From NCBI GenBank assembly GCA_963754655.1, contig CAVWGN010000001.1:2368001-2432000 (forward strand): 64,000 bases of DNA, read 5' to 3'. Positions 2,602 to 25,110 of the stretch are shown here, one piece after another. This stretch comes from an uncultured Chlamydiae bacterium (GTDB lineage Bacteria > Chlamydiota > Chlamydiia > Chlamydiales > Parachlamydiaceae). The notes beneath the pieces were generated by a model. It worked only from the letters and a program-made list of their open reading frames with translations. It was not told the origin of the DNA and did not search any database. Each line of letters starts with the position of its first letter. The first letter of the stretch is position 1. The position numbers were made by a program, and so were the translations under genes.

Positions 2602-2771
2602 GGGTTTACCTCCAGTTGTTAATCAACCGGAGTGTTACCCATGTCCTTGGATAATGTCACCTATGTCCTTAGATAAAGTGTTACCCATGTCCCTAGATCG
2701 GACCATGTTACAGCCCAGGTCGCAGCGAAGCGGAGGCCTGGGTTCTATCAAAAAGACATCGAGTCCTGAAA

Positions 2772-4233
2772 GGGACAATTGCAGAATAAACAATAAATTA
2801 TTTTAATTTACCACTTTCAAAAAAAGGCTCCTTAATATAGTCTAGATGTAGAAAAACCGTCTTAAACTATACAAGGAACCGAAAAATGTTCAGAGAAAAA
2901 TTATCGCAAATGTGGAATAACGTACAGTCTACTCTTTTTCCTGATTTAATCAAACGAACTCATGAACTCTGCCCTGAGTATAAAAAATTAGTATCAATTC
3001 TGGAACTTGTTCGTATTGAAAGTCATATTCCGCGATCCTTCAAATTAGGAAGGCCACCAAAAGATCGCATCGCAATGGCTAGAAGTTTTATCGCAAAAGT
3101 AGTCCTAAAACAACCTTACACTAAACAAATTATTCGCCTGCTAAACCAGGATGAACAATTGAGGATTATTTGTGGTTGGGAGGCAAATCATAAAATTCCT
3201 TCTGAATCTAAATTTTCTAGAGCTTTCAAAGAATTTAGCCAAATAACCCTTCCGGATAGGGTTCACCAAGCATTGGTTAAAGAATTTTACAAGGGAGAGA
3301 TCATAGGACATGTGATAACAGATTCTACACCCTTAGAAGCACGTGAAAAATCATTAAAAAAACCATGTGCAAAAACACGTCGAAAAGAAAAAGACAAAGA
3401 AAGAAGAAGAATGAAAAGTGCTGGAGAACCAAATCTACGTCAACAGCAGTTGAATGAACCAGATCTTCGAAAAATGGTAGAACATCTTCCTATAGCATGT
3501 GACAAAGGCATGAAAAGAAATCCTCAGGGATTTCACATTTTTTGGAAAGGCTATAAGTTGCATACTAATGTTGATGATAATGGAGTCCCTTTGGCTGCAA
3601 TTGTCACATCTGCATCGTGTAATGACTGTGAAGTTGCAATTCCTTTATCTCTAAAAACAAGCAAGGTAGTAACTAATTTGTACGATTTAATGGATGCAGC
3701 TTACGATTATCCAGAAATCAAGGAATTTAGCCGATCCCTTAATCATATACCAATTATCGATCAGTGTTCGCGAAGTGCAGCTCAAAAAAAGGCAAAAATG
3801 GAAGAGAAAAAAAGAAAAACTCTTTTAAATTTTAAAACAGCTGAAGAAAAGAGGTACGCAGAGCGATTTCCCAAAGAATCCTTTAATGCATTCTTTAAGG
3901 ACTATTGTGGAGGACATAGGATATATTACAGAGGATATCAGAAAGTCTCTTGCCATGCATTATTTGGAGTATTAACAGCGGCCGCTATGATGTTATTGAA
4001 ATTCACTTCCTAAAGATCGATTAAATTTCAAAGATTGACAGTATCTTCTTACGTTACCCCCTGCCAAAATTAGATCAATTTTTAAAAAAATTCAAAAAAT
4101 TCGAATGTTTTGCATAAAAGTGTTTTTTTTTCATTAAAACTTAGTCGTCTAGAATCGATTCTTTTCGATCTCAGGTACAATTGACAGAAAAAAAATCGCA
4201 GTATAACACGCTAAATAATTCTGCAATTGTCCC
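2772..4233 (+). mobile_element. Insertion sequence, 1462 bp, IS4/IS5-like DDE (ISNCY/IS1182-like), copy 1
   Basis: TIR GGGACAATTGCAGAAT at both ends; duplication TGAAA (up to CCTGAAAGG depending on boundary choice) in the GTCCTGAAAGGAC hairpin; same length and protein as 23579..25040. Confidence 0.92.
2886..4013 (+). CDS. DDE transposase (DUF772-like N-terminus + DDE_Tnp_1-like core)
   Basis: GRPP, LRIICGW...IPSESKFSR, DSTPLEARE, WKGYKLH, LMDAAYD, KESFNA motifs; inside TIRs. Confidence 0.9.
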   Translation: MFREKLSQMWNNVQSTLFPDLIKRTHELCPEYKKLVSILELVRIESHIPRSFKLGRPPKDRIAMARSFIAKVVLKQPYTKQIIRLLNQDEQLRIICGWEANHKIPSESKFSRAFKEFSQITLPDRVHQALVKEFYKGEIIGHVITDSTPLEAREKSLKKPCAKTRRKEKDKERRRMKSAGEPNLRQQQLNEPDLRKMVEHLPIACDKGMKRNPQGFHIFWKGYKLHTNVDDNGVPLAAIVTSASCNDCEVAIPLSLKTSKVVTNLYDLMDAAYDYPEIKEFSRSLNHIPIIDQCSRSAAQKKAKMEEKKRKTLLNFKTAEEKRYAERFPKESFNAFFKDYCGGHRIYYRGYQKVSCHALFGVLTAAAMMLLKFTS

Positions 4234-4325
4234 TGAAAGGACGGCATAAATATGCGACCTTCAATTCAACTATGCCAATTATTGTGAAAAATAAAGCTCA
4301 TTTTTTGCACAAAATGAACACCCTA

Positions 4326-4541
4326 ACCCAGGGCGATGCCCTGAACTATTTTATTTGAAGCCTTTCAAGCTCTGAACATTGGACATCTTTTTGCTAACCG
4401 TCTCTAAACTGATTGTGGAGTATGTAACATTTAATAAGCATGGGTTCTACAATCGTTATAGAAGGAGGCCTTCTAAAAATTGTCCAATGTTCAGAGCCTG
4501 AAAGGCTTCAAATAAAATATCCCAGGGCATCGCCCTGGGTT
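4326..4541. repeat. Nested sub-palindrome in the right arm of the family A element
   Basis: ACCCAGGGCGATGCCCTG..TATTTTATTTGAAGCCTTTCA.GCTCTGAACATTGGACA inverted around a ~95-bp spacer; a diverged spacer/arm copy occurs reversed at ~58818-58930. Confidence 0.8.
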
Positions 4542-4632
4542 AGATTAGCCCTCGTCATGTAGTCTGAAAGGACTACAAGAGAATCATCTCATCCCAATCC
4601 CGGGGCTTTGAAGCACTCCCAATAGGCTAAAA

Positions 4633-5070
4633 CTAATGTGGTTGAGTACTAGTTGGTGCATTTGAGTCATTAAGATTTTGTTCCTTTCTAATCCATTTTG
4701 AATTGGAACGGATATTAGCAGCTTCAACGGCTTGACGATTCATACGACTGGAAGTTGTTTCCCATGAACGATCTTTCGTTTGCTCATCTCTTGCTTGAGG
4801 AGGATTGGAATGAGTATTTGAAGTAGCAGCAGCTTGGCGATTCATACGACTGGTCGTTGTTTCCCCTGAATGATCTCGTTTAATTATGGGTTTCGAATTA
4901 TCATTTTGTTTTTGCTTTTCTTGGCTGTATGGATCATGATTGTACATCTGCTGCTGGTTATTTGAATTTTTTTCAGTCATCGAACTTGAAAAGTAATTCG
5001 CAAAAATTGCAGTAGGTGCGGTCATTACCAACAAAATCATAAAAATATAAAGTCTTGTATTTCTATTCAT
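4633..5070 (-). CDS. Secreted low-complexity (N/Q/S-rich) hypothetical protein
   Basis: GGAG RBS before ATG at 5070; signal peptide; internal repeat ETT(T/S)SRMNRQA; last codons lie inside the repeat cap. Confidence 0.7.
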   Translation of the reverse strand: MNRNTRLYIFMILLVMTAPTAIFANYFSSSMTEKNSNNQQQMYNHDPYSQEKQKQNDNSKPIIKRDHSGETTTSRMNRQAAATSNTHSNPPQARDEQTKDRSWETTSSRMNRQAVEAANIRSNSKWIRKEQNLNDSNAPTSTQPH

Positions 5071-23204: not shown

Positions 23205-23212
23205 GAGTTACA

Positions 23213-23512
23213 ATGAAAAAACTAGCATTCACACTATTAACAGCCTTAATTGTCATGCAAGCAGAGGCTCTTCTTCCTCCCCTTTATCAAACATCATCGG
23301 AAATTCAAGCCATTATGGCAAATGAACAATTGGGGCAAAAACTGCAGTCAGGAGAAGTGATCGAAAAAATAGAAAAGAATGAGCAAGGCTATGAAATTAC
23401 AACTAATAAAAGTCGCCTACAAGTGAAAGTGACTTACGCACCTATCCAACATCCTGGCCCTGCACAATATAGATTATCCTTTAGCAATTCAGTTTCTCTT
23501 CCTTCGCACTAA
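23213..23512 (+). CDS. Small secreted hypothetical protein
   Basis: AGGAG RBS; signal peptide ending in AEA. Confidence 0.75.
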   Translation: MKKLAFTLLTALIVMQAEALLPPLYQTSSEIQAIMANEQLGQKLQSGEVIEKIEKNEQGYEITTNKSRLQVKVTYAPIQHPGPAQYRLSFSNSVSLPSH

Positions 23513-23578
23513 TTAATTGAAGCATGGCATGGTTCAAAAAGAGTGAATTTTGGGTAACATGTTTATGCCGTCCTTTCA

Positions 23579-25040
23579 GGGACAATTGCAGAATTATTTA
23601 GCGTGTTATACTGCGATTTTTTTTCTGTCAATTGTACCTGAGATCGAAAAGAATCGATTCTAGACGACTAAGTTTTAATGAAAAAAAAACACTTTTATGC
23701 AAAACATTCGAATTTTTTGAATTTTTTTAAAAATTGATCTAATTTTGGCAGGGGGTAACGTAAGAAGATACTGTCAATCTTTGAAATTTAATCGATCTTT
23801 AGGAAGTGAATTTCAATAACATCATAGCGGCCGCTGTTAATACTCCAAATAATGCATGGCAAGAGACTTTCTGATATCCTCTGTAATATATCCTATGTCC
23901 TCCACAATAGTCCTTAAAGAATGCATTAAAGGATTCTTTGGGAAATCGCTCTGCGTACCTCTTTTCTTCAGCTGTTTTAAAATTTAAAAGAGTTTTTCTT
24001 TTTTTCTCTTCCATTTTTGCCTTTTTTTGAGCTGCACTTCGCGAACACTGATCGATAATTGGTATATGATTAAGGGATCGGCTAAATTCCTTGATTTCTG
24101 GATAATCGTAAGCTGCATCCATTAAATCGTACAAATTAGTTACTACCTTGCTTGTTTTTAGAGATAAAGGAATTGCAACTTCACAGTCATTACACGATGC
24201 AGATGTGACAATTGCAGCCAAAGGGACTCCATTATCATCAACATTAGTATGCAACTTATAGCCTTTCCAAAAAATGTGAAATCCCTGAGGATTTCTTTTC
24301 ATGCCTTTGTCACATGCTATAGGAAGATGTTCTACCATTTTTCGAAGATCTGGTTCATTCAACTGCTGTTGACGTAGATTTGGTTCTCCAGCACTTTTCA
24401 TTCTTCTTCTTTCTTTGTCTTTTTCTTTTCGACGTGTTTTTGCACATGGTTTTTTTAATGATTTTTCACGTGCTTCTAAGGGTGTAGAATCTGTTATCAC
24501 ATGTCCTATGATCTCTCCCTTGTAAAATTCTTTAACCAATGCTTGGTGAACCCTATCCGGAAGGGTTATTTGGCTAAATTCTTTGAAAGCTCTAGAAAAT
24601 TTAGATTCAGAAGGAATTTTATGATTTGCCTCCCAACCACAAATAATCCTCAATTGTTCATCCTGGTTTAGCAGGCGAATAATTTGTTTAGTGTAAGGTT
24701 GTTTTAGGACTACTTTTGCGATAAAACTTCTAGCCATTGCGATGCGATCTTTTGGTGGCCTTCCTAATTTGAAGGATCGCGGAATATGACTTTCAATACG
24801 AACAAGTTCCAGAATTGATACTAATTTTTTATACTCAGGGCAGAGTTCATGAGTTCGTTTGATTAAATCAGGAAAAAGAGTAGACTGTACGTTATTCCAC
24901 ATTTGCGATAATTTTTCTCTGAACATTTTTCGGTTCCTTGTATAGTTTAAGACGGTTTTTCTACATCTAGACTATATTAAGGAGCCTTTTTTTGAAAGTG
25001 GTAAATTAAAATAATTTATTGTTTATTCTGCAATTGTCCC
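23579..25040 (-). mobile_element. Insertion sequence, 1462 bp, copy 2
   Basis: Reverse complement of 2772..4233; TTTCA duplicated at 23574-23578 and 25041-25045. Confidence 0.92.
23799..24926 (-). CDS. DDE transposase identical to 2886..4013
   Basis: Identical 375-aa translation. Confidence 0.9.
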   Translation of the reverse strand: MFREKLSQMWNNVQSTLFPDLIKRTHELCPEYKKLVSILELVRIESHIPRSFKLGRPPKDRIAMARSFIAKVVLKQPYTKQIIRLLNQDEQLRIICGWEANHKIPSESKFSRAFKEFSQITLPDRVHQALVKEFYKGEIIGHVITDSTPLEAREKSLKKPCAKTRRKEKDKERRRMKSAGEPNLRQQQLNEPDLRKMVEHLPIACDKGMKRNPQGFHIFWKGYKLHTNVDDNGVPLAAIVTSASCNDCEVAIPLSLKTSKVVTNLYDLMDAAYDYPEIKEFSRSLNHIPIIDQCSRSAAQKKAKMEEKKRKTLLNFKTAEEKRYAERFPKESFNAFFKDYCGGHRIYYRGYQKVSCHALFGVLTAAAMMLLKFTS

Positions 25041-25110
25041 TTTCAGGACTCGATGTCTTTTTGATAGAACCCAGGCCTCCGCTTCGCTGCGACCTGGGCT
25101 GTAACATAAC

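Follow-up and report, generated by a model that had tools for sequence, protein, structure and literature searches.

Within a 64,000-nt stretch of the genome of an uncultured member of the Parachlamydiaceae (Chlamydiota; assembly GCA_963754655.1, contig CAVWGN010000001.1, positions 2,368,001 to 2,432,000 of the forward strand; hereafter, the window), we found two copies of a 1462-bp insertion sequence (IS) that occupies one and the same base of a repeated hairpin at every locus in the genome. We put the probability at roughly 85% that this is an active, recently expanded DDE element, a distant member of the IS1182 family of the ISUnCu17 type, whose transposase selects the sequence GTCC-TGAAA-GGAC within a foldback repeat present in about 250 copies. 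A preliminary description of the window had assigned both copies to one base of the hairpin, which holds for the whole genome (11 of 11 loci). Coordinates are those of the window unless a contig is named.

Genomic copies and their junctions

The assembly, a 3.12-Mb contig (C1) and a 35-kb contig (C2), was searched with the IS by BLAST, which gave 12 matches: nine at 100% identity, one at 99.86%, a 224-bp fragment of the 5' end, and one copy truncated where C2 stops. Positions 25940-35310 of C2 equal positions 1-9380 of C1 at 99.67% identity, with errors accumulating toward the C2 end. Since the end of C2 thus duplicates the start of C1, the C2 copy is the locus C1:8221, and there are 11 distinct loci, 10 with full copies and one with the 224-bp fragment. 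C2 itself is at least partly an assembly overlap and not clearly a plasmid.

At all 11 loci, the IS is inserted at an identical base in the loop of GTCC-TGAAA-GGAC and its left end adjoins GTCCTGAAA or GTCCTTTCA, while five loop bases recur at the right end of all 10 complete copies. The complete list of insertion sites therefore excludes what the preliminary description had considered possible, that other copies lie at random sites. Read in the orientation of the IS, both window copies have CATCGAGTCCTGAAA before them and TGAAAGGACGGCATAAA after them, beyond which their flanks part (TATGCGACC versus CATGTTACC), so that the reported difference between their outer flanks is correct. The junction 15-mer CATCGAGTCCTGAAA occurs six times in the window (0.13 expected). 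The two window copies have, as described, the same orientation relative to the host repeat, but this does not hold genome-wide, with the IS left end pointing outward in six loci and inward in five.

A search with the 16-nt terminal inverted repeat, allowing up to two mismatches, recovered 11 left ends, 10 right ends, and one unrelated match with two mismatches; by the same search, no solo ends or miniature derivatives of the IS are present in the genome. In the soil-metagenome run containing this stretch, the IS stands on a contig of its own of 1464 nt at a depth of 10.3, compared with about 1.8 for the unique flanks; a second run contains fragments only. Eight of the 11 loci cluster on roughly one-quarter of the chromosome, in an arc that starts at 2.37 Mb, passes the contig end, and stops at 8 kb. 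Local hopping could be the cause, an explanation made post hoc and leaving module density aside.

The host repeat and the choice among its hairpins

The intact target, the 13-mer GTCCTGAAAGGAC, occurs four times in the window (0.06 expected) and 251 times on C1, and about 4% of the sites (11/262) are occupied. It lies within a module of about 190 nt (e.g., 16467-16655) with 349 BLAST segments in the genome, 237 of which span the hairpin. Module copies are 93-100% alike over 100-190 nt and mostly form mirror-image pairs that flank at least one 84-nt hairpin unit, giving foldback repeats of at least 0.5 kb. The inner part of the module (16601-16655 and its mirror copy) scores 36.4 bits with the Rfam model Acido-Lenti-1 (RF01687), just under the gathering score of 37, and the IS target hairpin corresponds only to the second hairpin of the model (20.6 bits); at gathering thresholds, Rfam gave no matches in positions 1-30000 of the window. 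Other genera of the family likewise contain multiple copies of the module core.

The same repeats contain a second hairpin type, GGCC-CTTCA/TGAAG-GGCC, which is distinguished from the target by a single stem pair and a single loop base. It is present 337 times, and the IS is found in none of these hairpins, nor in any of the 20,342 generic perfect hairpins of the genome with a 4-bp stem and a 5-nt loop. Were both repeat hairpins equally acceptable, the chance of finding all 11 insertions in the GTCC type would be about 1e-4 (our own arithmetic from the counts, assuming independent events). This points to a choice of target at the sequence level; a near-identical hairpin type is never used. With all copies in one palindrome family at a fixed position (11 of 11, next to 251 intact sites), the element belongs among the ISs that target palindromic repeats.

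Transposase and family affiliation

The IS has 16-nt terminal inverted repeats (GGGACAATTGCAGAAT) and a single open reading frame (ORF) of 375 aa, which is still open in all 10 full copies. The transposase exceeds the Pfam gathering thresholds for both PF05598 (DUF772) and PF01609 (DDE_Tnp_1). Its residues Y324, R327, E331, and K338 are invariant in 30 homologs and form an intact YREK motif, Y(2)R(3)E(6)K, a motif that marks IS4/IS5-type enzymes. The best-scoring IS model is the NCBIfam IS1182 equivalog NF033551, although the score of 73.8 bits is well below the cut-off of 270; the NCBIfam IS5 models gave 45.8, 36.5, and 25.1 bits against cut-offs of 110-140. The nine top full-length plasmid matches (35.5-39.0% identity) are annotated as IS1182 family or ISUnCu17, with the exception of one designated simply "transposase," and among named elements ISUnCu17 comes closest, with 37.7% identity across 99% of the protein length. 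Public data contain 1700 homologs at E <= 1e-5, and most of those listed sit on contigs of about 1.4-1.9 kb, fitting multicopy ISs.

Target duplication and insertion sites of relatives

In relatives inserted in unrelated flanks, the terminal base of the element is unambiguously a G located 7 nt before TTGCA. Applied here, this places the ends at GGGAC...GTCCC and gives a 5-bp duplication equal to the loop TGAAA. The preliminary description had proposed that the GGGAC end rebuilds a similar hairpin at both junctions, and the folding energies bear this out: as single-stranded DNA, the rebuilt hairpins GTCCTGAAAGGGAC and GTCCCTGAAAGGAC reach -2.9 and -3.1 kcal/mol, compared with -3.0 for the intact site, each with a loop one base longer. 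We dropped mimicry of the target stem by the IS ends as a general rule, since the relative L133/L214 combines GAGAC ends with a G5 stem.

An alignment-based search of genome contigs confirmed 599 relatives, of which 80 were kept. The comparison of insertion sites covers those with up to 63% identity; homologs at 70-89% (P0002-P0018) fall outside it. Among relatives at 38-45% identity, the duplication is 4 bp in 7/7 copies from Vicinamibacterales, 10/13 from Methylococcales (the other three look like 5 bp, as chance extension gives), 10/16 from Thalassobaculaceae (the remainder being degenerate), and 3/3 from Rhabdochlamydiaceae (with one apparent 5 bp). Their sites are diverse and non-palindromic, and the complementarity between flanks is mostly 1-4 of 8 positions, near chance, except for one Thalassobaculaceae copy (6/8) and one Rhabdochlamydiaceae copy (5/8). 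L040/L119, at 45-46% identity, has neither a clean duplication nor a hairpin.

The situation is different in the closest relatives examined, all from other Parachlamydiaceae. L133/L214 (genome G058, 61-62% identity) lies in the loop TGCC of CCCCC-TGCC-GGGGG, and the partner arm of its foldback keeps CCCCCGGCAGGGGG intact; the repeat carries the hairpin CCCGGGTTCCGCTTCGCTTTACCCGGGG, apparently homologous to the second hairpin of the module. A relative in genome G009 (56% identity) sits at the center of GCCCCACAT^ATGCGGGGC. No GTCC..GGAC hairpins or CAATTGCAG ends occur in the G009 loci, where the relatives have other ends and other targets. A run of C or G is found 2-4 nt from the IS end in four half-junctions (L215, L217, and L219 in G049, and one in L135), while a fifth (L220, also G049) has no such run near the IS end. 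No recognizable ends were found in L134 and L149. It thus seems that the near clade (56-63%), rather than the whole family, is characterized by insertion at hairpin centers, within a small sample of two complete junction pairs outside the source genome. With the relatives at 38-45% identity being unspecific, the preference for hairpins looks like a recent acquisition of this clade. The earlier proposal that "this DDE family" had specialized on the repeat holds at its core but is too broad, since hairpin insertion is seen in the near clade only and does not extend to the relatives at 38-45%.

Two side observations concern relatives. In the G009 copy (L034:1276-1303 and 2712-2739), the flanks ACAT and ATGC form an inverted and not a direct repeat, so that the duplication is either 2 bp or lost, unlike the 4-bp norm. 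In genome G023, an element of about 168 nt (L012:1499-1666 and L016:1499-1666) with ends GAGACAATTGCAG... like those of the IS lies inside palindromic CATGGACGA-type repeats; six left ends were counted, and a matching transposase was not found in this 73%-complete genome.

How the target may be read

We propose that a symmetric transposase assembly would read the half-sites GTCC and GGAC on ordinary duplex DNA, and that the IS ends would be joined at the points where stem and loop meet, 5 bp apart on the two strands, which would make the duplication equal to the loop. The resemblance of the GGGAC/GTCCC termini to the stem halves would then let each junction regain a hairpin-like sequence. Landing in an intergenic repeat would spare genes, so that the IS could persist in a compact symbiont genome; an adaptive motive of this kind, the "safe harbour" of the preliminary description, is something that we infer and do not observe. 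IS231A, with the target GGG(N)5CCC, is among several DDE elements with a symmetric target consensus. Its dyad-symmetric duplex target, 5-bp spacer, and symmetric transposase complex are the mechanism that we propose here, whereas its preferences are loose and scattered over the genome, unlike the one exact site inside a repeat family used by the 1462-bp IS. Reading of duplex half-sites seems favored over cruciform recognition because the DNA hairpin is weak, with 14 of 200 shuffled sequences folding as well as the intact site.

We consider it rather unlikely that the target is read as a structure instead, whether an extruded hairpin or cruciform or a hairpin in single-stranded DNA, with transfer at the stem-loop borders whatever the loop length, as in pathway c of the IS1272 model. 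Such a mode of recognition would fit the equality of duplication and loop in two elements (5 nt here and 4 nt in L133/L214) and the use by relatives of hairpins of unrelated sequence, and IS1272, of the same family, is reported to recognize stem-loops by structure (PMC5678879). On the other hand, a stem of 4-5 bp at -3.0 kcal/mol makes cruciform extrusion unlikely, the neglect of 337 copies of the similarly shaped GGCC-CTTCA-GGCC points to base-specific reading, and the orientation of the insertions is unbiased (6:5).

A broader scenario, which we regard as quite improbable, is that a Parachlamydiaceae clade of IS1182-like elements has co-evolved with Acido-Lenti-1-like foldbacks, integrating at dyad centers with the cuts set by the stem-loop borders, and that the module, about 100 nt in this view, is a landing pad shared by three unrelated IS families, each with a fixed docking base of its own. 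Cuts placed at these borders with no fixed ruler would explain why enzymes of 56-63% identity seem to duplicate 2, 4, or 5 bp. If this were true, the orphan "RNA motif" would really be a genomic trap or harbor for mobile DNA.

Several points weigh against the preferred interpretation, an active IS whose transposase selects GTCC-TGAAA-GGAC. Activity and target choice are both deduced from a single genome. No empty allele was seen in other strains or runs, a comparison limited to assembled contigs, none of which bridges an empty site, and no joints were found. The IS is missing from the three genomes of the same genus that were searched (0/3 by DNA and protein), and the module is absent from two of them, the third giving one weak match (E 2.5e-4). 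From the sequence alone, the duplication could be 3, 5, 7, or 9 bp, since dyad symmetry is present in the IS ends as well as in the target, and TGAAA as a loop, with T first and A last, adds to the ambiguity; the value of 5 bp rests on the homology of the ends and departs from the family norm of 4 bp. The occupied sites are all identical, so the extent of flank that is read cannot be deduced from them. In the near clade, L133/L214 shows no mimicry of the stem by the IS end, and the G009 copy lacks a clean direct repeat (ACAT versus ATGC).

Independence of the insertions

The outer flanks beyond the module are unique at 11/11 loci, and within 44 nt of the junctions there are at least eight flank haplotypes. 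Most of the variants that define them are also found among the 251 intact sites (-13A in 16, +12T in 24, -25A in 36, -32A in 29, and -29A in 77), while +8T, at C1:2494233, is found in none. This locus and C1:2391579 (window copy 2) have a shell of another, shorter type, whose divergence sets in 17 nt from the hairpin. At three loci, the variant nearest the IS is common to the intact partner arm of the same foldback, and therefore the IS entered that particular arm; conversion from another occupied repeat would require a tract ending 8-18 nt from the IS. The unique outer flanks, the presence of at least eight haplotypes, and the use of both orientations show that the insertions occurred independently of one another.

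These data bear directly on a different origin of the pattern, in which one or two transpositions were followed by spread of the IS through homologous recombination or gene conversion via the flanking repeat of about 100-190 nt. The similarity of the modules (93-100%) and the identity of the IS copies make such exchange physically possible, but we consider it very unlikely. Since both orientations occur, this base would in any case have been hit independently at least twice. At least eight haplotypes exist, with variants as close as 8-13 nt to the junction, some variants are common to the partner arm of the same element, which would have the tracts end some 8-18 nt from the IS, and IS-bearing arms keep the haplotype of their own element up to the junction. 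Moreover, the divergent shell of two loci begins 17 nt from the hairpin, and relatives in other genomes likewise sit in hairpin centers.

For the two window loci, a single recombinational duplication, which the preliminary description had named as an alternative, is excluded: they are unlike in outer flanks and in shell type, and every arm that bears the IS has its private variant or its shell type in common with its own partner arm. There has been no inversion between the window copies, since the flank on the interval side still matches the outside partner arm at both loci. The two copies are inverted on the chromosome, within inverted-repeat arms (2705-4268 and 23544-25107) that measure 1564 nt, more than the 1462-bp IS, because flanking repeat is counted in.

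A composite transposon made of the two window copies was rejected, as the 19.3 kb between them holds the genes for valyl-tRNA synthetase, DAHP synthase, an Na:alanine symporter, and a Ser/Thr kinase, and each IS has its own duplication inside its own repeat. Lying between inverted IS copies, this stretch with housekeeping genes (4234-23578) is a ready inversion substrate.

Three insertion sequences in one module

Two further ISs use the same module. An IS481-family element, one copy of which is nested in the foldback repeat of IS copy 1, is found in five copies (100% identical), all at the linker GCCGTCATGTT^CATGTTACAGCC and in a 4:1 ratio of orientations; the copies outside the window are at C1:679530, 1042823, 2138847, and 2539760. 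Its transposase scores 190.8 bits with NF033577, below the cut-off of 224, and is above threshold for Pfam rve. The third IS, of the IS5 family, is 838 bp long with a two-part ORF that is above the cut-off of NF033580 (129.6 bits), and five of its six full copies are at ACAGCCCAGG^ of the module, the sixth being at another CCCAGG hairpin. The module thus offers each of three IS families a fixed docking site of its own. Pairs of IS5-family ends of about 84 nt also flank short elements that resemble miniature derivatives (e.g., C1:90267-91130).

The concentration of three IS families in one repeat is what a harmless landing zone would give under random or weakly biased insertion, with purifying selection in a compact genome leaving only the copies in harmless repeats, but we set this explanation aside as extremely improbable, because selection cannot put 11/11 copies at one base of a module of about 190 nt nor keep them out of the 337 sister hairpins in the same elements, the fixed base differs from one of the three ISs to the next, and identical copies leave little time for sorting.

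An Acido-Lenti-1-like, catalogued orphan RNA motif thus appears in this genome as a hotspot in which three IS families nest, which bears on the tolerance of mobile DNA in reduced symbiont genomes. The 11/11 insertions at one base, the 251 empty sites, and the 337 decoys provide a ready-made target set for the study of DNA reading by IS1182-type enzymes. Of more specialist interest are the recently evolved-looking specificity, the duplication equal to the loop, and the module common to three IS families.

Comparison with known elements

ISs directed to palindromic repeats form an established class, to which the 1462-bp IS adds a new and very clean example; it does not establish a new principle. 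In the open-access literature, we found no published description of it or of any IS that targets these repeats in Parachlamydiaceae. IS1397 of this class inserts in the loop of palindromic units.

The preliminary description rightly stated that ISs targeting repetitive extragenic palindromic (REP) sequences are known, but it placed them in other families only, and two articles show closer precedents, with palindrome or stem-loop targeting in the IS1182 family and in IS4/IS5-family elements (PMC5678879, PMC1525189). Tobes and Pareja report that REP targeting occurs in the IS3, IS110, IS4, IS256, and IS5 families, several at 100% of copies (PMC1525189). The elements given there as targeting REPs or bacterial interspersed mosaic elements (BIMEs) are IS1397 and ISKpn1 (IS3); IS621, ISPpu9/10, and ISPa11 (IS110); ISRm22 (IS4); ISRm5 (IS256); and ISNm1106 (IS5), with 10/10 copies of ISRm22 and 7/7 of ISPpu9 inside the repeat. 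The 1462-bp IS resembles them in having all copies (11/11; in the others, all or most) within a high-copy extragenic palindromic repeat. It differs in IS family, in phylum (Chlamydiota), and in the repeat family, which consists of Acido-Lenti-1-like foldbacks and not of REPs. The IS110-family members differ further in that they are reported to use a guide RNA and a DEDD recombinase, in contrast to the DDE transposase found here.

Within the IS1182 family, a close parallel is IS1272, which belongs to the same broad DDE family and has inverted-repeat or stem-loop targets. Its description reports that it replaces stem-loops without duplication and accepts unrelated ones, that duplication of the loop only is the alternative pathway c in the model of Fig. 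13, and that Siguier et al. are cited there for palindrome targeting by some IS1182 members (PMC5678879). Unlike IS1272 as reported there, the 1462-bp IS leaves both halves of the stem in place, with the loop duplicated, and it uses one sequence (11/11) while ignoring 337 look-alike hairpins. ISUnCu17, an IS1182-like element annotated on an Aeromonas caviae plasmid, has the same type of end, with a terminal G 7 nt before TTGCAAAA, but in the copy that we examined the insertion site is not palindromic and the duplication is 4 bp (ATGA).

Annotated features of the window

The coordinates of the IS copies, of their host repeats, and of the associated elements are given in Table 1.

Table 1. Insertion sequences and foldback repeats in the window, with one IS5-family copy from elsewhere on C1.
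Feature	Position	Strand	Remarks
Host foldback repeat 1	364..4343	.	Intact arm, module-B array, IS481-family IS, and arm split by copy 1
Foldback repeat 1, intact arm	387-550	.	Intact hairpin 478-490
Foldback repeat 1, module-B array	551-880		
IS481-family IS	888..2703	-	1816 bp; transposase ORF 1447-2601 (-); nested at the linker GCCGTCATGTT^CATGTTACAGCC
Foldback repeat 1, arm split by IS copy 1	2704-2771 and 4234-4343		
Left TGAAA loop duplicate, copy 1	2767..2771	+	
IS copy 1	2772..4233	+	1462 bp; terminal inverted repeats GGGACAATTGCAGAAT; 100% identical to 8 other genomic copies
Transposase ORF of IS copy 1	2886..4013	+	375 aa; DUF772 and DDE_Tnp_1
Right TGAAA loop duplicate, copy 1	4234..4238	+	
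Uninterrupted foldback repeat	16350..17000	.	Empty target twice: 16568-16580 and 16785-16797
Host foldback repeat 2	23544..25760	.	Short "type-2" shell; one arm split by IS copy 2
Loop duplicate, right end of copy 2	23574..23578	-	TGAAA on the - strand
IS copy 2	23579..25040	-	Identical to copy 1
Transposase ORF of IS copy 2	23799-24926	-	
Loop duplicate, left end of copy 2	25041..25045	-	TGAAA on the - strand
Foldback repeat 2, tandem module-B array	about 25108-25650		
Foldback repeat 2, intact partner arm	25711-25723		Position of the hairpin
IS5-family IS, example	L001:605-1442 (= C1:3109847-3110684)		5 other full copies

The array in foldback repeat 2 consists of tandem hairpin units of about 61-84 nt (GGCCCTTCAGGCCTTAACAA...TTGTTAAGGCCTGAAGGGCC) between the foldback arms, and the length of such arrays varies among loci. 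Further repeat pairs in the window, at 33878-34065 and 39424-39611, 56603-56871 and 61010-61278, and 49425-49650 and 56093-56318, are both inverted and direct, 190-270 nt long, and 87-97% identical.

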